A stretch of 56,692 nucleotides of DNA, from the NCBI GenBank assembly GCA_938083015.1, contig CALKCX010000010.1, positions 1 to 56,692 of the forward strand, in the 5' to 3' direction. The first letter of the stretch is position 1. The number at the start of each line of letters is the position of its first letter. The translations under genes were made by a program, and so were the position numbers. Of the stretch, positions 35,481 to 56,692 are shown in pieces. The notes under the pieces were generated by a model. That model did no database searches. It worked only from the letters and a program-made list of their open reading frames with translations, and was not told where the DNA came from. The DNA comes from an uncultured Candidatus Micrarchaeota archaeon. GTDB lineage: Archaea > Micrarchaeota > Micrarchaeia > Anstonellales > J096.

Positions 35481-36367
35481 TTGAATTAAAGACTTTGATA
35501 AAAGCATATCGAAAGGAACAGAATTCAATAGAAGAAGTATTTGAGAAATTATTACCTGAATCTCCATTTTACGATATATATTATGATAAATACAATACTT
35601 ATCTATATCTTGAAGAGAATATTGAAAATATATTGTCATCTAGGAAGAATTTAAATAATTACATAAGATCTCTATCTTTTCAAGATACAGTAAAATTCGT
35701 ATACTATGTTACTAACAACTATCCAGAAGTACGCTTTTACAGAACAAATCATCATAATGATTTTGTACTTGAGAGTTTTGGTCTATTAAGAATTAAAGAT
35801 AAGAATTTACTAGAATACTACATATCAATAGATAAAATAAAGAATATGGAATACTTTGATCCCCCAGAGATAGATAGTATAGGTAAATACAGTTCTCTGG
35901 CGTATTATGCTTTATTATATAATAATTTTGACGTTTTAGATTTACTATTAGAAAGGACAAATCAATATTATCATGCCGGTATAGGTATTAATTATTACCT
36001 ATGGAACCAAGGTGAACACGATAGATTTATAGATAGTCTATCAACGCAAAGCATATTAATACCACAATATTCCTATGTTAGCGATACTAATTTTGATCTT
36101 ATTTCAATGGTATGTTTAGACGACATATTCTATATATCTCCTGACAAGATATTGTATAATGTTTTACCAGCTTATCTAAGAGAAAGATATCTAAAATTTA
36201 GTTCAGATCAAGTATTAGAGACTGATGTTGCAGATATAATTAATAATCTAGAGCAGATAAAATATATGATAGTATTTGGTAAATTAGAATATATATCTAT
36301 ATTTAAGTCGATAATATCATTGCTTGACGATATAGGTGTTGATATTATAGAATTGGAAAAATTCTAA
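35477..36367 (+). CDS. Hypothetical protein
   Basis: 296-aa ORF coupled to cutA (ATGA overlap); no motif recognised. Confidence 0.6.
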   Translation: MIELKTLIKAYRKEQNSIEEVFEKLLPESPFYDIYYDKYNTYLYLEENIENILSSRKNLNNYIRSLSFQDTVKFVYYVTNNYPEVRFYRTNHHNDFVLESFGLLRIKDKNLLEYYISIDKIKNMEYFDPPEIDSIGKYSSLAYYALLYNNFDVLDLLLERTNQYYHAGIGINYYLWNQGEHDRFIDSLSTQSILIPQYSYVSDTNFDLISMVCLDDIFYISPDKILYNVLPAYLRERYLKFSSDQVLETDVADIINNLEQIKYMIVFGKLEYISIFKSIISLLDDIGVDIIELEKF

Positions 36368-41248: not shown

Positions 41249-42766
41249 ATGGAGGGATTAGAAGTAAGTAAACTTAAAGGCTATGATCTTGCTATTAACA
41301 TTAGAAAAATAGACAATATAGATAAATTGGCCAATAATCCTGATGTTGAAAAAATAGATATTATAAATGGTTACGTCAACATTAGATTAAAACAAGAATA
41401 CTATAAGAAAATAGAATTAAACACAGATAGAGAACATAAGGTAGTAGCTATAGAATACCCTTCTGTTAATCCGAATAAACCATGGCATATAGGTCATCTT
41501 AGAAATGCAATAATAGGGGAAAGTATGTATAGAATACTTAAATTAAAATACGATAAAGTAGAAAGAATAGATTATATAGATGATCTTGGATTACAAGTTG
41601 CCCAGAGTTATTGGTATTATACAAAATACGGAGTATCAAATGAACATGATAAATTTGATCACAGAGTCGGTATTGATTATGTTAAAGTCAATCAGATGTT
41701 TCAAGATAATGAACACGAGATAAGAGAGATATTAAGACAAATGGAAGAAAACAATATTGCTAGAGACTTCGTAGATAAAGTATTAGATGCCCAATTAGAG
41801 ACAGCAAAACTGTATGGAATAGGGGCAGATTACAGAATATACGAAAGCGATATAAAAAGAGATATATTTGAAGTAGGTCTAAATAAGCTAAAAGATCTAG
41901 GTTATATTGAATATATAGATAATGGTGATTTAAAAGGTACTTATGTGACAAAACTAGGTAAAAAGGTAATTATAAGAAGCGATGGTACAGCTACATATCT
42001 TGGAAAAGATATCACATTTCAAATGTGGAAAGCTGGTATAATAGATGGATTGAAGTTTATTAAAAAAGATAATACATGGTATTCTCATAACAAAGGAGAA
42101 TTTAAGAATATTAAAGCTAATATAATAATCAATGTAATTGGTATAGAACAATCTTCTCATCAGAATGAAATTAAAGAGATATTTAAACAGATTGCACCTG
42201 AAGTAAATTATCTACATCTTGCCTATCAAAGAGTTAAGTTAAAACAAGGACATTTTTCAGGAAGATCTGGAAATTGGATAGGATATACTGCCGATGATCT
42301 ATATAGAGAAGCTTTAAATAGAACAAATAATCATGATCTTGCTCTAGCATCGATAAAATTCTTTATTCTTAAACATAATCCTAAGACAGAAGTAATATTC
42401 GATTGGGATAAAGCTTTAAGTACAACAGGCGATTCTGGAGTTTATGTATTATATAGCTATGTAAGAATGCTAGGATTGGAGAGAAACGCTTTAGTTCAAC
42501 CTAATCTAGAAAGTTTAGACGATGATGATAGAGAATTACTAAAATACCTGTTGATGTACAAATCTTCTATAGATAAAGCTATAAGATATCTTGATCCTTC
42601 TGTAATCGCCGAATATGTATTAAATATTGCTGAAAGCTTTAATTCATATTATTCTAAACATAGAATATCGAATAATCCTTCTAAACTATGGGTAGTAAAC
42701 AAGATTAAGATTCTTTATGAGAAGATGTTAAACTGTCTAACCATTCCAATCGTGTCAAGTATTTAG
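41249..42766 (+). CDS. argS: Arginyl-tRNA synthetase (compact)
   Basis: EYPSVNPNKPWHIGHLRN, RSDGTATYLGKDI, FSGRSG, GDSGVYVLYSYVR, FNSYY (DALR domain). Confidence 0.93.
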   Translation: MEGLEVSKLKGYDLAINIRKIDNIDKLANNPDVEKIDIINGYVNIRLKQEYYKKIELNTDREHKVVAIEYPSVNPNKPWHIGHLRNAIIGESMYRILKLKYDKVERIDYIDDLGLQVAQSYWYYTKYGVSNEHDKFDHRVGIDYVKVNQMFQDNEHEIREILRQMEENNIARDFVDKVLDAQLETAKLYGIGADYRIYESDIKRDIFEVGLNKLKDLGYIEYIDNGDLKGTYVTKLGKKVIIRSDGTATYLGKDITFQMWKAGIIDGLKFIKKDNTWYSHNKGEFKNIKANIIINVIGIEQSSHQNEIKEIFKQIAPEVNYLHLAYQRVKLKQGHFSGRSGNWIGYTADDLYREALNRTNNHDLALASIKFFILKHNPKTEVIFDWDKALSTTGDSGVYVLYSYVRMLGLERNALVQPNLESLDDDDRELLKYLLMYKSSIDKAIRYLDPSVIAEYVLNIAESFNSYYSKHRISNNPSKLWVVNKIKILYEKMLNCLTIPIVSSI

Positions 42767-43028
42767 GAAATCTATCTAAAATAGGTCTTCCTTTTCTATA
42801 TTTTATTATACCTATCACCATATTATCTATTTCAAATATATAATTGCCATCTTTCATCTGAGGTAATTCTCTATTATTATATTGGTCTATTGATATAGAT
42901 ATTCTTCGATTGTCTTTTTTTGAAAGATCACTCATAGCATAAGCATAATTTATATTATCTAGATCTATCAATAGGCCTCTCTCTCCTATATTAAAACTTT
43001 TAAGTTCTCTACTCATCAACCTATCCAT
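42705..43028 (-). CDS. Hypothetical protein, last gene of the surface operon
   Basis: 107 aa; starts 1 nt after the stop of the 1363-aa gene; overlaps the argS 3' end. Confidence 0.5.
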   Translation of the reverse strand: MDRLMSRELKSFNIGERGLLIDLDNINYAYAMSDLSKKDNRRISISIDQYNNRELPQMKDGNYIFEIDNMVIGIIKYRKGRPILDRFPKYLTRLEWLDSLTSSHKES

Positions 43029-43029
43029 G

Positions 43030-46000
43030 TTATTCTTCGCATCTCAACACGAATCTTGAAACACACCAATCAGCATCGTATGTTTCATAGAAAACTATAT
43101 CGTATATTGGTGAAAAAGTAACTGTTCTATTTCTTTCGTTAGGGTAGATATTCCCCCAATGATAAGTACAATTATCATCTCTTATAATAGCTGCCACAGA
43201 AACATCATTTACATTTACATTATATAATACTGGTTCGCATCTACAATTACTACTAAAATCAAAAAGGCCCGATCCATAATCTTGATAACATCTTACTTCA
43301 TATATATTTTGAGTATAAGGTATAGGTATATTTTGAGTGGTATTTGTTCTTAATCTTAAGTTATTATAACCTCCTTCGGAAGCTGCACTACAATTATCTA
43401 AATTTAGACTAATACTAGTAGTATTACCAAATCCTATTGTTCGATATCCTGGTGAAACCATACAACTCTCTTGAATAATCCATGGATTCTCAAATCTACC
43501 TTCAAAAACTCCGAAACCTGATAATGTCAATGTAAAGTTTCTGTGAATACATTGCTCAGGGCTATGGGGTTCTTCATTAATTGTAAGAAGCGATATTTGT
43601 GAAGTTACAGTTCCTCGAATATTAGATATTCTACCTTCTTTATAACATGTTGCTGGTTTACAAAAACTTTCTAATCTATAGCTACAATTAGCCGGTAAGC
43701 ACATCATATTGGTTCTATTATTATATCTATATTCGACAAAATCGAACATTCTATTTCCGATTTCATCGTATATTACAGGATTTGCACCCTTTATATACTG
43801 TTTTGCAAGTTTATAAGTCAAAAACCTACCATCTGGAGCTCTTATACATATGGTTTTATCATTATAATAGTTAGACGTAGCTATTTCTAAGCTATACCTA
43901 GCAAAGTTATTTCTATTGATTAAAACATTATATGTAGGGAAAATATCACCAGTTCTTACCTGAGGTACAGGATCTGGAATACATGTTATAGGTTGATTGT
44001 ATTGCTCATCAACAACATAACTACATTCTGATCTGTTTTCTGTTTGATATAAAACTGGAAGTCTTGCAAAACTACTTAATACAGATCTAGATAATTCCAT
44101 ACTACTTGAATAAGCGTTATTTTTTAACATGAAATCCTTCATATTACCTATATGTATTCCCATTACTCCATGACCAGATAGATTATGGCTATGGTTTACC
44201 AATAAATCTACAAATTCTTTTGCATAATTACTACTTCCATTTATATATAAATAAATTGGCATGCCCCCGCTTCTTTTATTTATATCTTTTAAAACCGATA
44301 TTAGTAAATTTATATCTGGGGCATTGTTTACTGTTACTATATAAAACAATATATCTTCTTGCGGAGAAGGTTTATTATTATTTACACCAGGACAACTTAA
44401 AAGATTATTATTCGATATATCTTCAGTTCTTGTATTATAATCAGGAACATGATAACTTATATTGCCACTTCCTATATTCATATTTCTCATAGTGGTTATT
44501 AAACAAGTAGGACATATAGATTTTAGTGTATTATAAGAATTACTTTCACCAAAAATACCCCCACCAAATAATGGATTACTTCTAACTAATATTACGCTAC
44601 CTATAGGAGATGCAGAATATTTTATAAATGGTCTAGGTATTCTCTCATTAGCTAGTATAAACACATCTACTTCACGTAATACTTTTTTAAGATAATCAAT
44701 AGGCACGTAATCTATGAACATTATAACTTGTCTTCCTTCCATCAAGTATTTAGTAACATCTCTTGTAAATGGGTAATGCTTATAAAGTCCATATTGATAA
44801 TCTCTTCTAATTACGAAAAGCAGTTCTCCATCAAGACTTCTATTCATAGCTACTGTACCTTGATAACAACCTATTAATCTACCAAAATCATCAAAGGCAA
44901 AACTAGCGTATTCGTATTTTTGCTTTGACGGACTAGAATATGTATATGTTCCTCCATAATTCGTATCTGGTTTTGCACAAGCATATTTAGCAATTTTTAT
45001 ATTATCCGTACTCTTACCACTATATTCTATTTGATTAGGCATGTTAAATAAAGTTACAGCTATAGAGTTTAAAGAAGGATTAGGGGGCACAGGTAGTCCA
45101 AATATTCTAATATCTAAATCTAAAAACTCTTGCGTAGTATTATTTACAGTCTTATTAACTCTTATACCTTTACAATCTCCATAATTACCATTACCATCCT
45201 CTATTAATATAACTACTTTTTTCAAATAAGTAATATCATCAAATTGAAATTCGTATCTTTTAAATGTAATATTCCACAATTCTTCATTTCTATTAGGACA
45301 ACCAGCTCCACCAGTTATGGCGTCACAAACTAAAATTTCATTATTGTTTCCACTAAAACAAGCTTTTTTCAATGTATAATTGTTAAAATCTAAATTATCA
45401 TTAACTGGAATAACTACCGCGTTTCTACCTTTAAACTTTATTGTCTTTCTAGGTATAAACTCAGGACTTTCAAATACATTGGTACGATTGTAAGTAAGAC
45501 TAGGCTTTACTTCAGAACCTACTTTTAAATTAAGCATAGGTCCTTGATAATTATAGTATGCATAACATGTTACAGGATCACACCAACAATCCAAAGATTG
45601 ATTATTTGAAGCATTTATACAAGTATACCTAGCATAGTATTCTACAGAACAAGTACCACCACTTGAACTATAATCTTCATAAATACATTCAAAAGGAAGA
45701 CCTGTAAAATTGTAATATCTATTCATATATCTATCAAATCTCTGGATAAGGGGTCTTGATGTATTATCTGGACTAAAACCAAATCTTTGATAGTATCTTT
45801 TAGCTATCTCTTGCATAATATACATTGGGTATTCCTCTTCTATAAATATTTCAGATAATGTCATGTTAAACGTCAGAGTTGTAGTAATTCTAGAAGAAGT
45901 GCAAAACGTAATTAAAAATCCTCCTTGACTATATTTGGTCAAGTTTAAATCTTGAAGTTTTAAAATAAAATTATATTTTACTCTATATATGTTTTTACCA

Positions 46001-47121
46001 TTTACATTGCGTATATACTCATAACTTATATTGCCAGTTTCTACAAACGCAGTATAATTACCAGGGTTTAACACAAAGCTTTCTCTAAATCCAAATCCAA
46101 GACCTATTCCGAGAAAACAACCTGTCATAAGGCCCCCTCCTGTGGTTAGAGAAGATTGATTTAAGTAAATCTTATGAAAGAAATTTGGATGAGAAGGTTG
46201 GGCAAAAGTTTTAAACAGTCCTACAGGGTATCTTTCGCTAATCCTATCTAGACTAGCAATGATAATTAAAAGTCTATAAAAGTTTTGATCATTTAATATC
46301 TTGGCCGTATCATCATATACGCTATATATGTATTCGTATCCATATGATTTATTGTATTTTGATCTGTAAAAAGATTCCATGGATTCTCTACCAGTATTGG
46401 GCATCTCACACATCAATAGACAGCTTTCCCAAGTTTCGTATTCTCTACCAGCACACGTATATTTAGTATTATTTAATTCACATCTTCTCTCTGCTTCAGG
46501 AACTATATTATAGAAAATAGGGTTTAGACCTTCCATACCTTGATAATCTCTATCAAATGGGTAAAAGTATTTATAATGTTCATATTCTAATATAGAATCA
46601 CCAACTCCAAATTTAGTACCGTATATGTTAAATTTATCCATATCGTATTTACCGACAAACTTTCTAGATAATGTTCCATAGAGAAGATTGAACGGAGTCT
46701 TTTGCTTTAATTCTTCTCCTTGATCTGCAGGTAACGTGTTATTAAACATGAATTTTTGTATTAAAAAATCATAATTTACCTTCTGATTTCCCGTATACTT
46801 ATCGTATACTAACATCGTAAATCCTGTTTTACAATTATCTATATTTGCGTATCTACAATAAGGAATATCTACTCTAGCTGATAAACCATTTATTGATAAA
46901 TTAGTATTGTAACATAATCTAGCTAAATCTGAACAACTGCCATCGCTTATCTGCATTGACACTACTTGATTATTCGTAACATTTCTTAACTCGACACATC
47001 TTCCATCTGTTATGTTTTGACAACATATATCTCTAATAATAAAACTTGACTGATTTTGTAAACAACCAGATAATATTATTAATATTATAACAATCTTAAG
47101 AACTGTATAGGGGCCCCCCAT
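43030..47121 (-). CDS. Large Cys-rich secreted lipoprotein-like surface protein (1363 aa)
   Basis: IVIILIILSG|C lipobox; many Cys and NxS/T sequons; strong SD GGAGGT (47130-47135) 8 nt before the ATG. Confidence 0.85.
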   Translation of the reverse strand: MGGPYTVLKIVIILIILSGCLQNQSSFIIRDICCQNITDGRCVELRNVTNNQVVSMQISDGSCSDLARLCYNTNLSINGLSARVDIPYCRYANIDNCKTGFTMLVYDKYTGNQKVNYDFLIQKFMFNNTLPADQGEELKQKTPFNLLYGTLSRKFVGKYDMDKFNIYGTKFGVGDSILEYEHYKYFYPFDRDYQGMEGLNPIFYNIVPEAERRCELNNTKYTCAGREYETWESCLLMCEMPNTGRESMESFYRSKYNKSYGYEYIYSVYDDTAKILNDQNFYRLLIIIASLDRISERYPVGLFKTFAQPSHPNFFHKIYLNQSSLTTGGGLMTGCFLGIGLGFGFRESFVLNPGNYTAFVETGNISYEYIRNVNGKNIYRVKYNFILKLQDLNLTKYSQGGFLITFCTSSRITTTLTFNMTLSEIFIEEEYPMYIMQEIAKRYYQRFGFSPDNTSRPLIQRFDRYMNRYYNFTGLPFECIYEDYSSSGGTCSVEYYARYTCINASNNQSLDCWCDPVTCYAYYNYQGPMLNLKVGSEVKPSLTYNRTNVFESPEFIPRKTIKFKGRNAVVIPVNDNLDFNNYTLKKACFSGNNNEILVCDAITGGAGCPNRNEELWNITFKRYEFQFDDITYLKKVVILIEDGNGNYGDCKGIRVNKTVNNTTQEFLDLDIRIFGLPVPPNPSLNSIAVTLFNMPNQIEYSGKSTDNIKIAKYACAKPDTNYGGTYTYSSPSKQKYEYASFAFDDFGRLIGCYQGTVAMNRSLDGELLFVIRRDYQYGLYKHYPFTRDVTKYLMEGRQVIMFIDYVPIDYLKKVLREVDVFILANERIPRPFIKYSASPIGSVILVRSNPLFGGGIFGESNSYNTLKSICPTCLITTMRNMNIGSGNISYHVPDYNTRTEDISNNNLLSCPGVNNNKPSPQEDILFYIVTVNNAPDINLLISVLKDINKRSGGMPIYLYINGSSNYAKEFVDLLVNHSHNLSGHGVMGIHIGNMKDFMLKNNAYSSSMELSRSVLSSFARLPVLYQTENRSECSYVVDEQYNQPITCIPDPVPQVRTGDIFPTYNVLINRNNFARYSLEIATSNYYNDKTICIRAPDGRFLTYKLAKQYIKGANPVIYDEIGNRMFDFVEYRYNNRTNMMCLPANCSYRLESFCKPATCYKEGRISNIRGTVTSQISLLTINEEPHSPEQCIHRNFTLTLSGFGVFEGRFENPWIIQESCMVSPGYRTIGFGNTTSISLNLDNCSAASEGGYNNLRLRTNTTQNIPIPYTQNIYEVRCYQDYGSGLFDFSSNCRCEPVLYNVNVNDVSVAAIIRDDNCTYHWGNIYPNERNRTVTFSPIYDIVFYETYDADWCVSRFVLRCEE

Positions 47122-48068
47122 ATTAGACTACCTCCTGTAAGAATACCGTAAAAGTATAAAGCTATTCCTAAACTTAACCCCATACTTACCCATATTGCTA
47201 TATTTAATCTATTGTATACAAAATTTAAAAAGTTTTTTATACTATCAGTAGCTCTGCTGTATTTATCTAAATCAAAATTCATTAATTCTGCCGAGTAATA
47301 GCTAGTTCCATCAACTTTTAGTTTACTACCACCAACACCAAGTTGTACATTAGTCATACTATTTAGTAATGACATAGATAATATCATTGGAAATATGAAG
47401 TAAAAAGAGAATGTCAAACTTATTAATATCGCTCCTAGACCTTTGGTAAGATATAAAGCTCTTAATACTATACCTGTGATAAGAATCAATGGTGCCATCT
47501 CTCTTAAATATCTTAAAGCTTCTATTAATATAGATAAGTTAACTATTAAATTGAAAGATGACTTTATTATAAATCCAAGCTTTACTAGTTCTTTAGCAAT
47601 TATCTCTTTACCTTCTAATTGTTCCAATATTCTTTGAAATAACCTATATGAATAACCTGCTATAGAAAAATCAAAACCAGCAAATCTATTTACAATTCTA
47701 TCATAATCGTCTATTGCCCTATCTTTTATAGATATCAACAAATCTCTATATAATTCAAGATAAGTTATGATAACATCGATATAACTATCTCCGCTAGCAG
47801 GATTGCCTAAAGTAACTTGTCCTGAATAGTTTCTAAGATTCTCTTGAAATATTCTTAATTGTTCTTGTGCACTTTGAGTAAATGCAATACCTAAGAAGTT
47901 AAACAACAATAATAATGCTATTGCAAATATTACAGATTCAATCATATCTTGAGTGGCCATTTTCTCTTGATATGGCATATTAGCTATTTTATAAAATAAT
48001 ATTCGAATCAAATATAGGGCGAATACTATCATAATACCTAAAACTGACAATTCAACATACCCTCCCAT
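47085..48068 (-). CDS. CedA/VirB6-like membrane protein, paralog 6
   Basis: N-terminal TM hairpin (..KIANMPYQEKMATQDMIESV..), motif GIVLRALYLTKGLGAILISLTFSFYFIFP, C-terminal TM ending LTGG. Family name is inference. Confidence 0.7.
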   Translation of the reverse strand: MGGYVELSVLGIMIVFALYLIRILFYKIANMPYQEKMATQDMIESVIFAIALLLLFNFLGIAFTQSAQEQLRIFQENLRNYSGQVTLGNPASGDSYIDVIITYLELYRDLLISIKDRAIDDYDRIVNRFAGFDFSIAGYSYRLFQRILEQLEGKEIIAKELVKLGFIIKSSFNLIVNLSILIEALRYLREMAPLILITGIVLRALYLTKGLGAILISLTFSFYFIFPMILSMSLLNSMTNVQLGVGGSKLKVDGTSYYSAELMNFDLDKYSRATDSIKNFLNFVYNRLNIAIWVSMGLSLGIALYFYGILTGGSLIWGAPIQFLRLL

Positions 48069-49234
48069 TATATCACCCTTAAGAATAGATCCAAGAATGA
48101 GAATCTCTCTCCAAGTAGTATTACTATTGATTTTGCAGCTATAATCATAGCTACTATTGTTGAAGATAGGGAAAATGTAGATATGATAAATTGAGATTGA
48201 TAAGCTCGCTTTATCTCGGAATCAAGTATAGTTGTACTAGGTCTACCGAAGATTGCGCTAAATAAGTTACCACTAGTTGGTATACCAAATTCTATATCTG
48301 TACCTTTCTTATTGATGTATGGTGTTGATACAATATTTTTACAAGGATCAGTAGGGTCTACGAAGAGATTATTTATATTTATTACCAATTGCGATAAGAT
48401 ATTAGGTTCAAGATAACCAGGTAAGTTATCGGAAAAGTTTTTTATTCTATCATAATAACCCATTACATCATTATTAATATATTTGAAAAATATATTAGAT
48501 TGTAAATATATTATGACAGGTAATATTATTAGCATCACAAATGCTATTGCCATCAAAGTATTGCCAGCGAATTTCATTCCAGGTATTAACCTTAATATTA
48601 TGCCATATGCTAATAACAATACTATTGATCTTGTAGAGCTTAAGTTTAATAAACCATAATAAGAACCTAATATCTTGGTACTTAATTCTAAACTATTTCT
48701 AGCTGCTGCTAATGATTGTGCAATCGGTTCTATGTAATTAGTATAAGGTATAACTGTATACAATGAAAGTGAATTAGGAAAGAAGAAACAACCAGCATCA
48801 AAACCACCTATTGTTATATCGCTAGCACATCTACTACAAGTAAATGAAGAATAATGATACATTCTAGCTTCAGTTTCTATTAACATATAAGACATATTAT
48901 TTATCAATCCCAACATATACAATAAATACTGTCTCGATATATTATATATCGTTCCTTGAGTTAAAAACGATCCCGGGCTAACAGCTATGCTACTACCTTG
49001 AAATGCAGATAAGACAAAATCTGGATGCTGAATAGTTTCAAAATATATAAATCTATAGCTTATATAAGTCAATATTACGAATACCAATATTATTATGAAT
49101 TCTCTCATTCCCATGTCTACGTATCTTATCAACATCTGATTAGATAAAACCTTACCTAAAAGAAATATCAAAGCATAAAATATTAAATATATTACCATAG
49201 CTATTGCTATTGGTCCAGTAAATTGATCTAACAT
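48068..49234 (-). CDS. CedA/VirB6-like membrane protein, paralog 5
   Basis: LLGKVLSNQMLIRYVDMGMREF hairpin; GIILRLIPGMKFAGNTLMAIAFVMLIILP; C-terminal TM ..ILLG. Confidence 0.7.
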   Translation of the reverse strand: MLDQFTGPIAIAMVIYLIFYALIFLLGKVLSNQMLIRYVDMGMREFIIILVFVILTYISYRFIYFETIQHPDFVLSAFQGSSIAVSPGSFLTQGTIYNISRQYLLYMLGLINNMSYMLIETEARMYHYSSFTCSRCASDITIGGFDAGCFFFPNSLSLYTVIPYTNYIEPIAQSLAAARNSLELSTKILGSYYGLLNLSSTRSIVLLLAYGIILRLIPGMKFAGNTLMAIAFVMLIILPVIIYLQSNIFFKYINNDVMGYYDRIKNFSDNLPGYLEPNILSQLVININNLFVDPTDPCKNIVSTPYINKKGTDIEFGIPTSGNLFSAIFGRPSTTILDSEIKRAYQSQFIISTFSLSSTIVAMIIAAKSIVILLGERFSFLDLFLRVI

Positions 49235-50395
49235 CTACGCCACCCTAGCTATATACGATAATACGAATGGACTAACATCTATTCCTAATAATTGATTAAT
49301 ACCTACTGTTATCGATATCGTTGCTAATAAAGATAACCCAAGAGATAAGATTATTAACATAGAGTATACGCTAAATCCTATTATCATAGAATTAGAATCT
49401 GATATCTCTGATAAGATGTTTAAAAACATACCTTTAAAGCTCTCTAATGTAAGATCTTTACAATTAGTCGGATATGCTCTAATATCTGTTAATTCTGCTA
49501 TTTTATTAGAAGCATTTACTGCCATAGTAGATGCATTAAAATCATTGTATGTTAAGGTAATTACGTTTAAAAAGAATACCGATAGTATAGGTAACATACT
49601 CATAGCTATAGAGAAAGATATCATAAAGCTGCCGACTTTTCTAGTTAACTTGACCATTCTTAATATTCCGCCTATACCGAAGAATCCAACTATAAATATT
49701 GGATAAACACTAGAACTAAACATCTCTCTAAACATGTATATTATCGATCTATATTGATTGATCTGAGATAATAAAGTATTTACATTATCGTATATTAAAC
49801 TAAAATGTCTACATGGCATATAAGAAAATCCACTAGATAAACCAGGATTTAATTCAGATAAGTCTTTTTTTATTTCATCTAAAGGTAGTCCAATATCGTT
49901 TATTTTTGCTTGATCAGGTATAGTATTACTACCACCTAATATTCCAGGTAGATCATTATAGAGAGCGTCAACAGCAATACTACCAAATATAAAATATCTT
50001 CTCGAGCTTAACGATATTTTTAACAATCTATCCAAGTTATCTTTAACCCTATCTCCAGCTACAGACATATAGCTCATATTCAAATAATTCTCAAAAGATC
50101 TATTTAGATAAATTTCTCTATCAACAGGATTATCACATGCTATGTTTTCGCCCAGAATATTATTTATCAATACTCCGCATGTAAACGTTTGTATAGGATT
50201 GGTAACCAAGTAACTAACTACTCCGATTAAAAGTATAGATATGGCAATTTCTACAATTTCTTCTTTCGAAGTCTGTTCCATCTCTTTTATACTAAACATT
50301 TTACCCAATGCTAATAGTATAAACATAAACAATCCTGCTATAACTATAGTTATTCCCAATACAGTATACAAAGTACTACCAAATTCTGGTATCAT
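49235..50395 (-). CDS. CedA/VirB6-like membrane protein, paralog 4
   Basis: ALGKMFSIKEMEQTSKEEIVEI hairpin; GGILRMVKLTRKVGSFMISFSIAMSMLP; C-terminal TM ..QLLG. Confidence 0.7.
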   Translation of the reverse strand: MIPEFGSTLYTVLGITIVIAGLFMFILLALGKMFSIKEMEQTSKEEIVEIAISILLIGVVSYLVTNPIQTFTCGVLINNILGENIACDNPVDREIYLNRSFENYLNMSYMSVAGDRVKDNLDRLLKISLSSRRYFIFGSIAVDALYNDLPGILGGSNTIPDQAKINDIGLPLDEIKKDLSELNPGLSSGFSYMPCRHFSLIYDNVNTLLSQINQYRSIIYMFREMFSSSVYPIFIVGFFGIGGILRMVKLTRKVGSFMISFSIAMSMLPILSVFFLNVITLTYNDFNASTMAVNASNKIAELTDIRAYPTNCKDLTLESFKGMFLNILSEISDSNSMIIGFSVYSMLIILSLGLSLLATISITVGINQLLGIDVSPFVLSYIARVA

Positions 50396-53031
50396 TATCT
50401 CACCTTACCTATTCCAGGTAAGAATATCTCTCCGCCCAGATATTCTGATAAAGTTATTATAGCTACAAATGTTATAAATATAGCTATTAAAGGTAAAGTT
50501 ATCATTCTAAATACAGCAGCACCGACATAGGAAAATAGATGATTATGGTTTTCAAACATGTTTAATTCTACACATCCAGAACAATCTGGAGAAGGAGGGA
50601 ATCTAAGTAAATCTGGGTTTACACTAGTAGCTAAACTGCAATCTTGACTATTTGGATATATAGGTAAATATACTTTTGATAGATATGTTATCATTACACT
50701 TAGCTCTGTATTAGTGGTTTCAAAGTAATTTTGTCTAATATTTCTCCAGATTCTTGAAGGTAGTTCCTCAGTCTTATACATATAGGTATTATTGCATGTC
50801 GTAACTCTAGGACACATGTTTGATCCAGAATACTTACATTCCATACCAAAATCTTCATTTGGATTACATATACCATATGCCCAGTATGGTGTATTGGCAG
50901 CATGTTTAAGATCTTTTATAGTCTGATCTAAAGCGTTACCTACGATTTCAGAGCATCCAGCTAATTTTACTATTTCATCTGTACTTATATCTGATCTAGC
51001 ACCTTTTTTTATATTCATGACTGTTTGAAGAGAATTAAAACAGTTTGTTCTCCATATGTTACCAAACCTATCTTTCCAACCTTTAAAGTTACCGTCGTTA
51101 TTTACATCTATGTTATTGTAATTATTTATAACATATTGATAGAATCTATCTCTAAACATATTTACTATCTGTTCTTCAGAAGTTGTAAATCCTGTTTGAT
51201 TGTAAACATCTATAAATATTAGAAAATCATTTGAAATTTCGTGTTGAGGTTTGATATTGTTTCTTATATTCAAAGCTTTATTTCCTCTAGGCGTATCGTA
51301 TTGATTATTTATTTCCTCTACTAAAGTAGTATTGTTTATACTTGGACTCTCTATAGCTGTGTAGATCTTTTTTATACTATTATTAAGATCTTGATCATAG
51401 CAATATGGATTAGCTACTGTATACATAGCTCCACATGTTATCAATATTTTGGCATTCCATACATTCTTGATACTATTGTTTATAATGTCACTAACAACAT
51501 TTTTAAAAAACGTATCATTTTTTAGCATATTTGCAAATTCTTTTGTGTACTCTCCGCCCTGGCCTCTATTTAAAAGATCCAATATACTTCTTGGATTTCC
51601 ATTTTGAATCAATTCTATTTCTTCTTCAGTAAAAGTGCCCCATACTATTTTATTATAATATCCTCTACATGATAAAGGACAATACAAATTGTAATCCTCT
51701 CTATACGGTCTAAGAGGTAATAATTTAGTACAATTAGTTTCCCTTATATAATCTCTTAACCTTATAGTATTTCCATTTGCCAATCTAATGGTATTATCTA
51801 AGACACTTAAATCATACATAATATTAAAGCAAGATCCATTCGATAAATCGTATAGATTAGAACATGCTGATGAGCTAAAGTAACATATAGGTATATCTAT
51901 AGGATATGGGATTTTTCTACATATCTTTGGACAAGTATTCATTCTTATACCTAAATCTCTAGCTTTAATTGATATCTCTGGTGTAACACCATATATAGAT
52001 CCAAGATTATTGTTAAGATATTCACAAGATGTTATCCCGTTTAAAGTCTTTTCATCAAGACCATCTAAAAATCTATTTATTTTTATCAAATCATAAGATT
52101 GAGATAAAATAGAATAGGCTTGTTGATAAGTTAGGCGTTGATTATTATAAGCTACTATTTCAATTCTACATATCTCTGGACATTGGTTTAATGAATAAGT
52201 TAGACCAAAAGATGGAGGAAAAGAATAAAGTAATACGAATAAACCTGGTAATATAAAGAAGAAGCCTATACCTATTGCAAGTAAAGTAGCTCCTAATTTT
52301 CTAAAGAATGGTAAAGGTCTAAGAAATACTCCTATTGAAATAAATATAGGTCCTATTATTTGTATTAGACCAAATGTTAAAGCTGCTATTCCAGATGATA
52401 ATGTTAAAATATACATTCCTAATGTATAATATTGTTCTTCAACAATATATGGGGTGAATCCACCGGCGTATTGTAATCCTAAAGAAGGAATTCCTGGCCA
52501 TTCGAATTTAACACCTTCTCTAACATTGCCCATCTTATATTTTGCAGCAGCTGATTTTACACTCTCTAAAACCATCGTCTTAAAAATATCGAAGTTTTCC
52601 TTTATATTTTCCCTTATGTAATTATAAACACATCCAGTAGAATTACAATCTCTAATAGATGGATTATTTGAAGAAGAGGTGACGCTTATAAATATGATAT
52701 CCATTATATGCATTAAGGCCAATAATCCTAATAATATAACAAATGAAAAAGCGAATTCCTTCATTTCAACATTGGCCATGGCCTTTAATCTAGGAGAATT
52801 CAATAGATCTGCAGAGAAATTCATTAATATGACTAAACTAAATCCTATCAATAATCCGATTACTCCTAATGTAAACCAACCTGGAAGCTCTCCTTGCATT
52901 AGATTTCCTTGTAATATCTCTCCAATATACGGTGTGCCTGATAGATTCCTTAATATTGATTCTATACTACGATTGTATTCTTCCGATACATTTATTCCAA
53001 ATACGTATATTATTAACATAAGATATATCAT
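50395..53031 (-). CDS. CedA/VirB6-like membrane protein, paralog 3, with ~560-aa Cys-rich insertion
   Basis: DLLNSPRLKAMANVEMKEF hairpin; GVFLRPLPFFRKLGATLLAIGIGFFFILP; ..YLGG. ATG 53031 with SD AGGTG preferred to GTG 53040. Confidence 0.75.
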   Translation of the reverse strand: MIYLMLIIYVFGINVSEEYNRSIESILRNLSGTPYIGEILQGNLMQGELPGWFTLGVIGLLIGFSLVILMNFSADLLNSPRLKAMANVEMKEFAFSFVILLGLLALMHIMDIIFISVTSSSNNPSIRDCNSTGCVYNYIRENIKENFDIFKTMVLESVKSAAAKYKMGNVREGVKFEWPGIPSLGLQYAGGFTPYIVEEQYYTLGMYILTLSSGIAALTFGLIQIIGPIFISIGVFLRPLPFFRKLGATLLAIGIGFFFILPGLFVLLYSFPPSFGLTYSLNQCPEICRIEIVAYNNQRLTYQQAYSILSQSYDLIKINRFLDGLDEKTLNGITSCEYLNNNLGSIYGVTPEISIKARDLGIRMNTCPKICRKIPYPIDIPICYFSSSACSNLYDLSNGSCFNIMYDLSVLDNTIRLANGNTIRLRDYIRETNCTKLLPLRPYREDYNLYCPLSCRGYYNKIVWGTFTEEEIELIQNGNPRSILDLLNRGQGGEYTKEFANMLKNDTFFKNVVSDIINNSIKNVWNAKILITCGAMYTVANPYCYDQDLNNSIKKIYTAIESPSINNTTLVEEINNQYDTPRGNKALNIRNNIKPQHEISNDFLIFIDVYNQTGFTTSEEQIVNMFRDRFYQYVINNYNNIDVNNDGNFKGWKDRFGNIWRTNCFNSLQTVMNIKKGARSDISTDEIVKLAGCSEIVGNALDQTIKDLKHAANTPYWAYGICNPNEDFGMECKYSGSNMCPRVTTCNNTYMYKTEELPSRIWRNIRQNYFETTNTELSVMITYLSKVYLPIYPNSQDCSLATSVNPDLLRFPPSPDCSGCVELNMFENHNHLFSYVGAAVFRMITLPLIAIFITFVAIITLSEYLGGEIFLPGIGKVR

Positions 53032-53040
53032 AAACAACAC

Positions 53041-54030
53041 CTATAATGATTCTATAAAATCAAAAGTTTTATAAGCATTCATTGCAAAAGCAGCTACTAC
53101 AGCTAATGATAGATTTGGTAAAGTTATCACCATAAGTTGATATAAACTAACTTTGTAATAAGATAAGTCTGGATTTTTTATGAATATGTTTTCCACATAC
53201 CTTGGATTATATATTCCTTGATCAGCATTAAATATATCTTCAAACCCCCTTAAATATATAGAGTATATAAATGGATATAGTATATGCATGCCTAATCCAA
53301 TAGCTATTAACATATCTCCTGCTTTTTTTAGACCTGGAAACAATCTTATAACAACCCCTCCTATTGCTATACCTGCAAACAACCCATTTCTTATAATTTG
53401 CAATATAAATAGATGAACTTGTAAACCTATATATATTGTTTCTAAGTCTCTAATTATTCTGTTAGTTATAGAATTATATACCATGTATTGTTTATATGGT
53501 AGATAAGTTATTACTGGAAAGATCATCGATTTTGTAATTGCCGATGTAATCAAACTAGGTTGATCTAAACTCATTATTACATATAATATCGTAGCACCTG
53601 TTATTGTAAACGAAACTATAGTAAAGCTATACGGTATGTTAGCTTCTCCTTCTCTCTGGGCCAATCTATCGTATGCCGATAATATATTGCTTAATAACAT
53701 ATCTGTTCTAGATTGTAAAGTATTCATAGAATAATCAAAATAATTACCTATACTTGGATCTATATTTGATTGTAATCTACATAAGAATTCACTAAAACCA
53801 GGTATTGCTAGAAGTATAAATATACTAAAAAGATAGTTTATAGCAGATGCTCTTACAATTATACGCTTTTGTTGATCAGCTATTAAGTAACTATAAATAG
53901 TAAACAATGCAAGTCCAATTAGTATTATGGTTATGATTTGATGAGCAATTCTTATCATATTATTATCTATTTCTAAATTACATGTTGCCGAACTTATAAT
54001 TATTAAGCTAAATACGCTCTTCAATACCAT
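53041..54030 (-). CDS. CedA/VirB6-like membrane protein, paralog 2
   Basis: YLIADQQKRIIVRASAINYL hairpin; GVVIRLFPGLKKAGDMLIAIGLGMHILYP. The ORF-track GTG 54045 is part of SD GGAGGAGGTGA, so ATG 54030 is preferred. Confidence 0.7.
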   Translation of the reverse strand: MVLKSVFSLIIISSATCNLEIDNNMIRIAHQIITIILIGLALFTIYSYLIADQQKRIIVRASAINYLFSIFILLAIPGFSEFLCRLQSNIDPSIGNYFDYSMNTLQSRTDMLLSNILSAYDRLAQREGEANIPYSFTIVSFTITGATILYVIMSLDQPSLITSAITKSMIFPVITYLPYKQYMVYNSITNRIIRDLETIYIGLQVHLFILQIIRNGLFAGIAIGGVVIRLFPGLKKAGDMLIAIGLGMHILYPFIYSIYLRGFEDIFNADQGIYNPRYVENIFIKNPDLSYYKVSLYQLMVITLPNLSLAVVAAFAMNAYKTFDFIESL

Positions 54031-56692
54031 ATAAGAAATAATCACCTCCTCCTAATAAAGATATAGATCGAATAGAAACTATGGCGACTATGAGATTGAT
54101 TAAATAGTATGCTATGTTAATGACATTCATAAATGCTAAATGTATCATCATATTATAACTTAATAAAATATCAAAGGCCTCTATCATTTGATTCGTTCCA
54201 CCAGTACCTACATTATTCATATTCGAAGTCTCAAGACTCCATATAACGGCTATTATCATTTTAATTATTCCATAGGCGATATCTGCGAATACATAGAATA
54301 AAGCTGCTGCTATTGGATATGTAATACCTATTATTTTAGATATTTGTAAGAATATCCAAGAACCGAATTTAAGAAATAGCCATCCAAATTGTAATCTATT
54401 TGCCCATATTGCTATTTCATCTAAATTATTCAATGCCGCAGCTACCTGATTATATATTTCACCTATCTTAGATTCTGCTATTATCAAATTTTGTTCTATA
54501 CCTTGAATAGTATTCAACATTATATTAACGATTATAACAGTAGTTACATTATATAAGAATGGCAATATGAATATCAATGTTATAGCTATACCTAATAGCG
54601 TAGATCCTATTCTCTTAGTAAAAGGTAATATACGTGCTATTAAAGCTAGATATAATAGAAAACCATAAGAATAAGATATTAAAAATTCGACTAGTTTAGT
54701 GTAATAATTTAGATTAAATACTATAGATTGGAATAATCTTACCAGACCTTGTGCATTATTAGCGTATTCATATATCTTTTTATTGAAGTTCTCTCTTTTA
54801 TTTAGTTCTACTACCCATATACTTATAGACCATTCCATAGGACTTATAGATGATAATATAGATGACATTGCGTATATTTTAGCTGCAGTTAAAGTAAGGT
54901 TGTTTAATTTATTCGATAATGCTGAAATGTTGTTTTTAGCTGTTACAAGCATATTTTCTGTCATTCCACAATAGAATGCATTCGAAGCAAATATAATAAG
55001 GAAGAATACAAATAATGTAACTAAATAAGATCTAAATTCTACCTTTGCACCCAATAGTATCTCTTGATTATTAAACAAATTCCCGAACATATATCCTAAT
55101 GCTATTAACAATATACCTATAACAGCTACTGTAACAAAAATATAAAGCATTCTTTGATTGCCATTTGTACCACATTGAAATGTAAATGGGGGCAATTCAA
55201 CATTTTCTTTCTTTCTAAAATCTACCCAATAAGATTCGGCAATATTGTTATTATTATCGCGACATCTAACCATCCATCGATAGTTACCATCATTACCTAA
55301 ATTGACATTTACACCTATATTGCCTGCCGAACCACTGTAAGTTTGACTAACATTATACCCACCTGGACCTTCTAAGATAAATTCACAAAAAACATTATTA
55401 GAACTTTCATCTACATAAGCTATTAGCTGAACATTATTACTATTAACATTTGTTCCAATAGGTGATTTAGGTGTTATCCTTGGGGGCACTCCATCTTGAT
55501 ATCTAAATCTAACTCCAGTAGAATTCTGATTTCCAGCTAGATCTACACAGGTAACATTAAAAGTATAATCTCCGTTATTAACAATATTTACACTTCTTCT
55601 TATAATACTATTCGGAGATGTTTCTGTATTATCAGAATATAAATTAGCTACAATTAAATTGCACGTAAGCTTATTAGGTGATGGTATTAGATCGAATACT
55701 CTTACTTGAAGATCAATAGGAGATGCGTATGTCAAAGATCCTTCATCAGGGTATATTATTGATATCTCTGGTGGAGTAAAATCAACGATAAACACTCTAG
55801 ATTGTGAAGTTCCTGTATTTCTTGGCCCCCTATCTGTACATTGTACAACAATATTGTATAAACCTTCACTTAGATTTGTATATATTCTCTCAATTCTAGA
55901 ATTGTTTCTAACATCATTTATAGTTTCTATAACAAGACCAGTAGCAGTATTGTTTATAATACAATCTAACATATCCACAGGACTATCGTTAACTTCAAAT
56001 GTTATATTTACTGGTTTGATTGTCGTATTATTAGTAGCGAATATAGGTAAAGCTGGTGGCGATAATATATTTATTGTAGCTGTCTGCTCAGTATATCTTC
56101 TTATATCTCGCGTTTCTGTACTATTACGTTTAGTACCTGTAAAAGATGTATTTCTGGTTGTATCCTTACATTCTATAGTAACTCGATGATGGCCCCAAGG
56201 CAATCCTGATATTGTATTGTTAGCACAACCTTGATTACCTGGAAAATGATTTTCTATAAACTTTATATTGTTAATCCGTATTGCACATAATATATCATTA
56301 TTATCGTCATTTACACAATATCTTATATTTATAGAATCATTATAAAAAGGAGAACTAGGTTCTATTACAAGATTTCTTATTTGCGGATTTTCAAAATCAA
56401 AAAGTAAAGGATTAGATCTAATGGATTCGTTGTTTGTGCAGTTTAATTCAGCGTACCCATATCCGGGATCTAAGCCTGAAGGACGTATAGAAATTGAACA
56501 TGAATAAGTTGCCGAGCTATTATTATTGCCATAATCAACACACTGTCCCACCCAAGAACAGCTACCAGGAAAAGATTTTATAGAAACACCGTCTTTTACA
56601 TAGAGTGTGCAAGATAAAGGATCTGGAGGTTGAATGGCATTACAATTTGGTGGCCCATACATACGTTCATTAAAAACGTGCGTAAATTCTCG
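54008..56692 (-). CDS. CedA/VirB6-like membrane protein, paralog 1, with N-terminal Ig-like repeats (probably 5'-truncated by window)
   Basis: Frame stays open above ATG 56662 to the window end (REFTHVFNER-MYG) and there is no signal peptide at that ATG. Ig-like units (DFTPPEISIIYP..GDYTFNVTCVDLAGN), then MFGNLFNNQEILLGAKVEF hairpin and LIARILPFTKRIGSTLLGIAITLIFILP. Confidence 0.8.
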   Translation of the reverse strand, partial: REFTHVFNERMYGPPNCNAIQPPDPLSCTLYVKDGVSIKSFPGSCSWVGQCVDYGNNNSSATYSCSISIRPSGLDPGYGYAELNCTNNESIRSNPLLFDFENPQIRNLVIEPSSPFYNDSINIRYCVNDDNNDILCAIRINNIKFIENHFPGNQGCANNTISGLPWGHHRVTIECKDTTRNTSFTGTKRNSTETRDIRRYTEQTATINILSPPALPIFATNNTTIKPVNITFEVNDSPVDMLDCIINNTATGLVIETINDVRNNSRIERIYTNLSEGLYNIVVQCTDRGPRNTGTSQSRVFIVDFTPPEISIIYPDEGSLTYASPIDLQVRVFDLIPSPNKLTCNLIVANLYSDNTETSPNSIIRRSVNIVNNGDYTFNVTCVDLAGNQNSTGVRFRYQDGVPPRITPKSPIGTNVNSNNVQLIAYVDESSNNVFCEFILEGPGGYNVSQTYSGSAGNIGVNVNLGNDGNYRWMVRCRDNNNNIAESYWVDFRKKENVELPPFTFQCGTNGNQRMLYIFVTVAVIGILLIALGYMFGNLFNNQEILLGAKVEFRSYLVTLFVFFLIIFASNAFYCGMTENMLVTAKNNISALSNKLNNLTLTAAKIYAMSSILSSISPMEWSISIWVVELNKRENFNKKIYEYANNAQGLVRLFQSIVFNLNYYTKLVEFLISYSYGFLLYLALIARILPFTKRIGSTLLGIAITLIFILPFLYNVTTVIIVNIMLNTIQGIEQNLIIAESKIGEIYNQVAAALNNLDEIAIWANRLQFGWLFLKFGSWIFLQISKIIGITYPIAAALFYVFADIAYGIIKMIIAVIWSLETSNMNNVGTGGTNQMIEAFDILLSYNMMIHLAFMNVINIAYYLINLIVAIVSIRSISLLGGGDYFLYGIEERI

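Follow-up and report, generated by a model that had tools for sequence, protein, structure and literature searches.

The stretch of DNA analyzed here (the window; 56,692 nucleotides) is the entire contig CALKCX010000010.1 (C10) of assembly GCA_938083015.1, a 518-kb, 84% complete genome of ~29% G+C from an uncultured Candidatus Micrarchaeota archaeon; protein matches assign it to "Ca. Anstonellales" within the DPANN Micrarchaeota. The question that it raises is what is accomplished by six consecutive genes for related membrane proteins (g1 to g6), which are followed by a gene for a giant lipoprotein (g7). DPANN archaea such as Micrarchaeota live in attachment to their hosts, and many biosynthetic pathways are missing from them. 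The observations described below suggest that the window probably encodes the decorated six-subunit platform, together with its lipoprotein, of a Micrarchaeota-wide machine that is derived from a type IV secretion system (T4SS) and resembles the Ced and Ted systems. Ced, found in Sulfolobales, and Ted, found in Thermoproteales, are likewise chromosomal, domesticated archaeal derivatives of T4SS; Ced has a channel of CedA and its five-transmembrane (five-TM) paralog CedE, the pilin CedA1, and the ATPases CedB and CedD, and the Ted components are TedA, TedC, and TedB (PMC9905601, PMC11868833).

The Membrane Protein Family and Its Fold

The seven minus-strand open reading frames (ORFs) listed in an earlier note on this sequence are all present where it had placed them, and they abut or overlap as it had said (g1 and g2 overlap by 23 nt, g2 and g3 abut, and g3 and g4 overlap by 1 nt); further along, g4 and g5 abut, g5 and g6 overlap by 1 nt, g6 and g7 overlap by 37 nt, and a gap of 1 nt separates g7 from the next ORF, g8. 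Each of the six strings of residues quoted there as versions of a shared motif is found verbatim in the ORFs. That the six genes are paralogs is sustained by a hidden Markov model (HMM) built independently from 92 family members of other genomes, none of them close to the window genes, which matches all six along almost the entire profile, at E values of 1e-20 to 1e-37. Among the 1,402 ORFs of the source genome, its only other matches are the six genes of a second array, at C1:22876-30279 on the plus strand (C numbers denote contigs of the source genome), and one small pilin-like ORF; the prediction that more paralogs would be encountered is thus borne out. Pairwise BLAST matches among the six paralogs are weak but colinear, with E values down to 1e-5, and hhalign of ortholog profiles gives probabilities of 94% for g2 with g5, 86% for g1 with g5, 22-44% for several other pairs, and 2-6% for some.

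A profile run against 1.84 billion representative proteins recovers 2,330 clusters of the family at E<=1e-3, of which 693 remain at E<=1e-10. Residues R215, G224, and P239 (g5 numbering) are invariant across 100 diverse members, and the consensus near them is LPxGxxLRxFPxTRxxGGxLIA…P. No Pfam family covers any of these 100 members, and searches of Pfam and NCBIfam with the eight window proteins returned nothing for the cores. Every source name encountered for the family is "hypothetical protein," and in ten diverse clusters the members carry no organism label other than Micrarchaeota. A degenerate DNA pattern representing one variant of the motif gave 61 matches in 185,579 species genomes; all 52 archaeal matches, which carry the label Micrarchaeota or unclassified archaeon, are in genes for family members, and none of the nine bacterial matches is. 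The family is uncurated, and the observation of six related genes is confirmed. A literature search found no paper describing the family or the system, and the terms secretion, pili, VirB, and conjugation do not occur in the Micrarchaeota genomics papers that were checked.

The protein chosen for modeling was g5 (48068..49234, minus strand; 388 residues; family HMM E=2.1e-25). With an alignment of 100 sequences, AlphaFold2 gave a model with a predicted local distance difference test score (pLDDT) of 83 and a predicted template modeling score (pTM) of 0.80, in which helices span residues 6-29, 33-65, 96-129, 165-214, 221-252, 338-373, and 380-387. From the N terminus, the model shows a hairpin of TM helices and then a long helical hairpin in the ectodomain; TM3 and TM4 come next, joined by a short loop, and after a mixed insert the chain ends with TM5 and a short amphipathic tail. 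The five-part skeleton that the six sequences had been said to share (a TM hairpin, an extracellular helical region, the motif, a variable insert, and a last TM helix) agrees both with this model and with residue statistics for the family. In 149 members, Lys plus Arg and Cys account, respectively, for 13 and 0.03% of residues in loop1, 25 and 0.20% in loop2, and 8 and 0.00% in the C-terminal tail, as compared with ~5 and 1.5-1.7% in the ectodomains and 2.9 and 3.0% at the N terminus. Because Lys and Arg are enriched in the loops and Cys is enriched outside, the subunits are predicted to be N-out, five-TM, C-in proteins, each with two variable ectodomains, and the conserved elements, namely the TM1-TM2 loop, the R-x-x-P-x-T-R-x-x-G loop between TM3 and TM4, and an LGG…RLI tail, are predicted to be cytoplasmic. 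The presence of a signal peptide ahead of the ~500-residue immunoglobulin (Ig)-like N-terminal domain of g1 is consistent with an N-out orientation. Among close orthologs, identity is 44-61% in the ectodomains versus 72-86% in the cytoplasmic loops. The topology of Agrobacterium tumefaciens VirB6 equals that of the family (PMC6120205), and CedE has the same number of TM helices, five (PMC11868833).

The VirB4-type ATPase, the Operon, and the Pilin-like Proteins

Two DUF87 ATPases are encoded in the source genome, one on C3 and one at C8:62316-63881. The C3 protein is of the classic HerA type and was rejected as a part of the system. The C8 protein has Pfam matches above cutoff to DUF87 (59 bits), P-loop_TraG (49 bits), AAA_10 (35.5 bits), and TrwB_AAD_bind; its top NCBIfam matches are VirB4-like CD1110 (3e-26), CedB (1e-24), and CedD (5e-20), with VirB4 of mycoplasma integrative and conjugative elements (ICE) and TraC also among them, and all of these outrank HerA. 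Its best match in the PDB is VirB4 (4AG5, 5e-11), and in plasmids it matches 1,207 records, 1,027 of them conjugative, the matches listed being all on TraC/VirB4-type genes or on unnamed DUF87/ATP-binding genes. No match to PF03135, the N-terminal domain of VirB4, was seen on the C8 ATPase. The matches listed above place the protein in the VirB4/CedB class.

The earlier note had predicted a VirB4/HerA-like ATPase beyond position 56692 or elsewhere in the genome; the C8 gene answers to the second of these places, but the first is empty. The final 141 nt of the window (56552-56692) are identical to C9:1-141, an overlap of exactly 141 nt that looks like an assembly k-mer join, and C10 and C9 were joined on it for completing g1 and viewing the genes upstream. 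These are a 101-residue coiled-coil ORF, an adenosine-kinase-like gene, a multi-TM protein, and leucyl-tRNA synthetase; the joined sequence upstream of g1 holds neither an ATPase gene nor a further paralog, and an ATPase directly upstream of the window was accordingly rejected. Similar end matches are present between C8 and C12, C2 and C13, C11 and C6, and C14 and C7, so that the assembly could be scaffolded further.

The link between the ATPase and the membrane protein family is drawn from their distribution and from gene order. In a sample of 151 Micrarchaeota genomes, the family is present in 134 and the ATPase in 137; when strong ATPase matches only are counted, both are present in 133 genomes and both are missing from 16, with two discordant genomes, one each way. 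At eight loci fetched from other families of the class, pilin, paralogs, and ATPase lie in a single operon. This starts with genes for a ~130-residue pilin-like protein, a ~243-residue 7-TM protein, and six (sometimes three or four) paralogs, continues with one or two copies of a ~276-residue 2-TM protein, the VirB4-like ATPase, and a ~100-residue winged-helix ORF, and ends with a ~135-residue 2-TM protein, a ~245-residue coiled-coil protein, and a ~800-residue 2-TM protein. Each of the parts downstream of the paralogs is homologous to a gene of C8:58855-64704, a five-gene cluster in which the C8 ATPase sits with membrane and coiled-coil proteins. The ~100-residue ORF is fused to the ATPase in the source genome and is separate in several relatives (L024:11759-13565, L032, and L034; L numbers denote loci); its winged-helix domain has a Pfam match to MCM_C at 4.5e-5.

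In four more loci (L027-L030), a family member adjoins a paralog of the ATPase. The module at these loci, which come from genomes G089, G059, G037, and G129 of the same taxonomic order, consists of one family member, a 260-residue 2-TM protein, the ATPase paralog of ~480-495 residues, and a coiled-coil protein, with a ~98-residue ORF in two of the four; in G089 and G059 it includes large 2-TM proteins of ~700 residues, and in G089, G059, and G129 it is preceded by a pilin. A module of this type either has no counterpart in the source genome or lies within the missing 16%.

In the source genome, the parts of the system are spread over five contigs: two pilin-like genes on the minus strand at C2:15641-16332 and one on the plus strand at C14:12400-12732, the 7-TM protein at C1:19669-20406 and the second six-gene array on the same contig, the ATPase module on C8, and the array and lipoprotein of the window. 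A closer arrangement is seen in G083, a genome of the same family, where 4.4 kb separates the ATPase module from the beginning of an array of the window's type, which lies downstream of the module on the same strand.

The pilin-like proteins are mutually homologous, the copies in the source genome being linked to the others at phmmer E~1e-8 to 1e-12, and have a signal peptide and two hydrophobic helices joined by a basic loop. Several of those in the operons of relatives match Pfam T4SS_pilin over the full length of the model, scoring 25.9 and 24.6 bits where the cutoff is 26.6 (1e-5 and 2.7e-5), and TrbC/VirB2 at 6e-4, but the copies on C14 and C2 do not themselves match Pfam T4SS_pilin or TrbC. 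The best Pfam match of the C14 copy is DUF4134 (E=0.0018). A profile of the pilins aligned by hhalign with TM1 plus the following loop of the membrane family, the N-terminal hairpin, gives 37-46% (P~3e-4), as compared with 0.1-3.2% for internal controls and <=0.6% for 20 column shuffles. T4SS_pilin also has sub-threshold matches on three of the 100 diverse family members and on g2, where the match is to residues 33-88 in the N-terminal hairpin (E=0.008). A relation of the same kind between CedA and CedA1, and a weaker one between VirB6 and VirB2, was described by Beltran et al. (PMC9905601). A bacterial monoderm T4SS cluster on a Pontibacillus plasmid (NZ_CP062975.1, 6874-13188; L110), which encodes a pilin-like protein, two hypothetical ORFs (one of 779 residues), a 116-residue ORF, a 274-residue ORF overlapping virB4, and a VirB4-like protein, resembles in its gene order the Micrarchaeota series of pilin, membrane proteins, 276-residue protein, and ATPase.

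Plain and Decorated Arrays

Two architectures of the array are found across the order. The plain arrays (type A) have six paralogs with few Cys residues and no giant partner. In the decorated arrays (type B), the third paralog (p3, with p1 to p6 denoting position in the array) carries a Cys-rich ectodomain of 574-1,380 residues, as seen in 10 arrays across the order, and a giant Cys-rich ORF of 1,084-1,968 residues follows p6, directly except in G123, where a 292-residue ORF lies between. The window array is of type B. Position by position, and without a break in the order, it corresponds to arrays from two other genera of its taxonomic family (L036 and L037), and p3 of L036 matches p3 of the window at 206 bits. 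In the ATPase-linked arrays, p1 to p6 are one-to-one orthologs in order (L023, L024, L031, L034, and largely L026). The array on C1, which has few Cys residues and no giant partner, encodes proteins of 504, 358, 398, 424, 463, and 328 residues that map in order from p1 to p6 onto L026, the ATPase-linked array of G121; its flanks are S19e, an aminoacyl-tRNA synthetase, and seryl-tRNA synthetase. A 278-residue lipobox protein that consists almost wholly of about twelve 22-residue Cys-rich repeats (…C-x-x-D-x-D-C-x-x-[WY]-x-x-C…) is encoded on the plus strand at C1:13470-14306, 9 kb upstream of this plain array.

The decoration of the window array involves its first and third paralogs and the lipoprotein, all of its genes being on the minus strand. 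The first, g1 (p1; 54008..56692 and to 56770 on the joined contigs; family HMM E=3.3e-28), is complete at 920 residues, with a signal-like N terminus, ~500 residues of Ig-like β-sandwich repeats that match Pfam Y_Y_Y (29.6 bits) and Big_13 (28.6 bits), both over cutoff, and then a 5-TM core (~520-920). In g2 (p2; 53041..54045; 329-334 residues; E=1.9e-20), a signal- or lipobox-like N terminus (…SSATC) precedes the 5-TM core; translation probably starts at 54030, giving 329 residues, which matches the starts of orthologs (MVLKS…). The hallmark of type B is seen in g3 (p3; 50395..53040; 881 residues; E=1.4e-37, with both the N-terminal part and the C-terminal TM helix matched), where a Cys-rich insert of ~500 residues lies between TM4 and TM5 of the 5-TM core. 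The motif of g4 (p4; 49235..50395; 386 residues; E=2.2e-27) lacks the Pro (LRMVKLTRKVG). The smallest core is that of g6 (p6; 47085..48068; 327 residues; E=4.1e-23), whose orthologs are 61-82% identical and whose best matches are the p6 proteins of other arrays, so that its positional identity is recognizable across arrays.

The giant lipoprotein described in the earlier note is indeed encoded beside the array: g7 (43030..47121) specifies 1363 residues with a signal peptide, the lipobox LSGC, 45 Cys residues, 35 N-x-S/T sequons, and a CC pair that follows the Cys of the lipobox by 13-14 residues. It was considered as a seventh paralog and rejected, since hhalign gives <1% against every paralog and the family HMM does not match it. 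A module of ~240 residues at the N terminus and a block at ~440-528 are conserved, and the remainder evolves fast. A simple search recognizes g7 only within its genus, but iteration with jackhmmer connects it, through these two conserved regions, with the giant ORFs in nine further arrays that were fetched from across the order. The giants listed all have a lipobox, and all but one have a CC pair ~8-15 residues further on; 11 of the 17 invariant columns in their alignment are Cys. No Pfam domains were found on g7 or on six giant lipoproteins of other genomes, and an AlphaFold2 model of the N-terminal 540 residues with 14 homologs (pLDDT 51, pTM 0.34) was unusable.

One nucleotide past the stop codon of g7 is g8 (42705..43028), which encodes a soluble protein of 107 residues and is possibly a member of the operon. 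An ORF of 103-109 residues occupies the same place in three related genomes, within the genus only, and no homologs were found beside the arrays of other genera. The g8 gene and the convergent gene for arginyl-tRNA synthetase (ArgRS) overlap by 62 nt at their 3' ends (42705-42766), as they do in three related genomes. Elsewhere in the window are an 885-residue CDC48-like double-AAA protein with a polytopic N-terminal domain (36364-39021, minus strand) and, at the start of the contig, an open-ended surface protein of 1,382 residues (1-4146, minus strand).

Relation to Known T4SS and Possible Functions

The curated models for CedE (NF053657; six members, best 1.4e-5) and CedA (NF041796; five members, best 8.5e-8) give the most frequent NCBIfam matches among the 100 diverse family members; there are single matches to a mycoplasma ICE VirB6-like TM protein and to TcpD. 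The CedA model matches 49 of the 151 Micrarchaeota genomes at a per-genome E<=0.01, when ~1.5 would be expected, always at model positions ~100-200 of 259, and among 14 control genomes it matches Sulfolobus acidocaldarius only. Each match that can be mapped lies inside a family member, mostly p4, on the TM3-motif-TM4 segment (for example, residues 163-246 of p4 in L043, with p4 also matched in L045 and L041), and the model matches the G084 ortholog of window g4. Among the matches that were mapped, the paralogs are the only proteins in these genomes that the CedA and CedE HMMs match. The region concerned, TM3–R-x-x-P-x-T-R-x-x-G–TM4, is the one in which a likeness to CedA had been suspected from the window sequence. 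Of the likeness to CedA and VirB6 proposed there, the part relating to CedA receives support at the level of the family, but that relating to VirB6 or TrbL does not.

Several observations weigh against the proposal of a Ced/Ted-like machine. The CedA and CedE scores are <=28 bits against a curated cutoff of 330 and cover ~90 residues of TM-rich sequence, and no CedA or CedE match, whether by NCBIfam search or with the CedA model, was found for the six window proteins or for the source genome overall. Pfam TrbL (PF04610) is unmatched at E<=1 by the six proteins and the 100 members, and when the family was compared by hhalign with a VirB6-like CD1112 profile derived from seven plasmid genes, the probability was 2.9% and the alignment was non-colinear; both direct profile comparisons with VirB6 are therefore negative. 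NCBIfam likewise gave no match to the CD1112 VirB6-like model for the window proteins or the 100 members. In a Foldseek search of the PDB, the best match of the g5 model has E=0.35 and a TM score <=0.2, and the top 50 contain no T4SS chain; the expected fold similarity to VirB6 failed to appear, since no VirB6 chain, such as TrwI (PDB 7O3V), was matched. Searches of PDB sequences with two family profiles also gave no match. Finally, the array of the window does not share a contig with the ATPase or the pilins, and it has diverged so far from the ATPase-linked arrays that p3 and p6 alone are recognizable; it may have taken on a different role.

The link of the window proteins to CedA is thus transitive, through matches to other members of the family. 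Because the CedA scores are small and the window's own proteins are unmatched, the family is read as a distant branch of the CedA/CedE lineage and not as an equivalog member. That lineage has been related structurally to VirB6 in the literature (PMC9905601, PMC11868833).

On the reading that we consider probable, the six genes would encode six distinct subunits, p1 to p6, of a very divergent CedA/CedE-like (VirB6-class) family, which would form the membrane platform of a chromosomal, T4SS-derived machine as a hetero-oligomeric, possibly six-membered, assembly. The other parts of the machine would be the VirB4/CedB-class ATPase module on C8, the VirB2-like pilins on C2 and C14, and the plain array on C1. 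The conserved cytoplasmic elements may dock the ATPase module, to which the window array would be coupled, and the VirB4-type motor may drive pilus assembly and/or the transfer of DNA or protein, as in Ced and Ted. The type-B version, with the Ig-like repeats of p1, the ~500-residue Cys-rich ectodomain of p3, and the giant lipoprotein, predicted to be disulfide-rich and glycosylated, would present a fast-evolving surface structure that may act as an adhesin in contact with the host cell.

The system shares with Ced and Ted a VirB4/CedB-class ATPase, a putative two-helix VirB2-like pilin, and, so far as PF03432 and PF02534 show, the absence of a relaxase or coupling protein; with Ced it further shares more than one channel paralog (CedA and CedE), the five TM helices of CedE, and, putatively, the pilin-like N-terminal hairpin of CedA. 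It differs from Ced, which has one or two channel paralogs, in having six that are positionally conserved, and in having, besides the plain array, a decorated one whose ectodomains are Ig-like or Cys-rich and which is accompanied by a giant lipoprotein. The 276-residue 2-TM, 245-residue coiled-coil, ~800-residue 2-TM, and 243-residue 7-TM partners have no Ced counterpart and, whereas Ced is ultraviolet-inducible repair equipment, the Micrarchaeota system belongs to a DPANN symbiont and is near-universal in its phylum. VirB6/TrbL proteins (PF04610; TrwI of R388; CD1112/PrgH-type) have the same N-out and C-in orientation, ~5 TM helices, and a large external loop after TM2, and a similar genetic position; the Enterococcus plasmid order is VirB6-like, small ORF, PrgI, and VirB4, and the Micrarchaeota paralogs are likewise upstream of a small membrane protein and VirB4. 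However, no similarity of sequence, profile, or fold to VirB6/TrbL was detected in the tests that were run. The rvh T4SS of Rickettsiales, obligate symbionts or parasites, likewise has tandem channel-type paralogs, some with very large extensions (PMC2653234, PMC7648143), but these are 4-5 copies of a recognizable TrbL/VirB6 in a diderm MPF-T system, in contrast with six genes in fixed order, in a monoderm, to which TrbL models are blind. The Patescibacteria (candidate phyla radiation, CPR) have an MPF-FATA T4SS that is also a chromosomal, conjugation-derived VirB4 system, present in almost all members of a group of ultra-small episymbionts, with pilin and VirB6-like genes near virB4 and a proposed role in host interaction (PMC12102498); it differs in being bacterial, with a single VirB6 homolog recognizable by standard profiles and neither a six-paralog array nor a giant lipoprotein.

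Among the alternatives, the one that survives best, although we consider it unlikely, is that the type-B array has been neofunctionalized into an ATPase-independent anchor or scaffold that displays the lipoprotein and the p1 and p3 ectodomains as an adhesion or envelope complex and translocates nothing. The separation of the window array from the ATPase and pilins and its strong divergence from ATPase-linked arrays fit this, and the plain C1 array, which maps onto such arrays, could serve the motor alone; type-B arrays are always accompanied by the giant lipoprotein and not by the ATPase. However, the putative motor-docking motifs show equal conservation in the two types of array, with R215, G224, and P239 invariant and loop2 86% identical among orthologs, and in G083 the type-B array is 4.4 kb from the ATPase module. 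The presence of one VirB4-like ATPase for two arrays fits sharing and independence equally.

It is rather improbable that the system makes a VirB2-type attachment pilus only, with the paralogs as the platform for its assembly and nothing translocated. The VirB2-like pilin genes in the operon, the resemblance of the N-terminal hairpin of the paralogs to pilin, and the failure to find a coupling protein or relaxase would all suit such a pilus, but Ced and Ted also lack a relaxase and coupling protein and yet move DNA (PMC9905601, PMC11868833), and sequence tests cannot separate pilus biogenesis from translocation. There is very little likelihood that the paralogs are ordinary solute transporters or permeases, duplicated in tandem and unrelated to secretion; no curated family covers these polytopic membrane proteins, and DPANN depend on the uptake of many metabolites, but they have only five TM helices, carry large Cys-rich ectodomains, and match no transporter family, and this explanation does not accommodate the conserved operon with a VirB4-like ATPase and pilin, the near-perfect co-occurrence with the ATPase, or the specific similarity to CedA and CedE.

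The earlier view that the locus is chromosomal rather than conjugative is supported by the synteny of the array and its flanks, comprising the adenosine-kinase-like gene, ArgRS, DUF373, and the CDC48-like AAA protein, in three other genomes, and by the failure to find the PF03432 relaxase, the sole relaxase family tested, or the PF02534 (VirD4-type) coupling protein in the 84% complete source genome. A conjugative plasmid or integrated conjugative element, to which the conjugation ATPases that are the nearest named relatives of the C8 protein might point, is practically discounted by these housekeeping flanks, by the uniform G+C (0.26-0.32), and by the occurrence of the family throughout most of the phylum, and a mobile-element origin was rejected.

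A more specific form of the Ced/Ted-like proposal, which we put forward as a speculation of low probability, is that the six unlike subunits form a pseudo-sixfold ring, in gene order, on a hexameric VirB4-type motor, with the type-B ring crowned by p1, p3, and g7, and that this is the symbiont side of a host junction through which host DNA, nucleotides, or proteins might be taken up by a cell that is unable to make them. A cryo-tomography preprint on ARM-1, a cultured Micrarchaeon, reports that the symbiont envelope contains a barrel-like structure for docking, 21 nm in size and unassigned (bioRxiv 10.1101/2024.05.20.594898); if such a ring exists, this barrel could be an instance of the junction.

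The envelope structures seen by cryo-tomography at contact sites have so far had no genes assigned to them. The probable Ced/Ted-like machine, kept by roughly nine in ten of the sampled Micrarchaeota genomes and with a motor and pilin from the world of conjugation and T4SS, would extend the idea of a domesticated conjugation machine from the repair-related DNA exchange of crenarchaea to a possible lifeline of obligate symbionts. The particular contribution of the window is the decorated type of array and, through the family, a direct CedA/CedE signal; the ectodomains of the type-B arrays and the giant lipoprotein are concrete candidates for components of host recognition.

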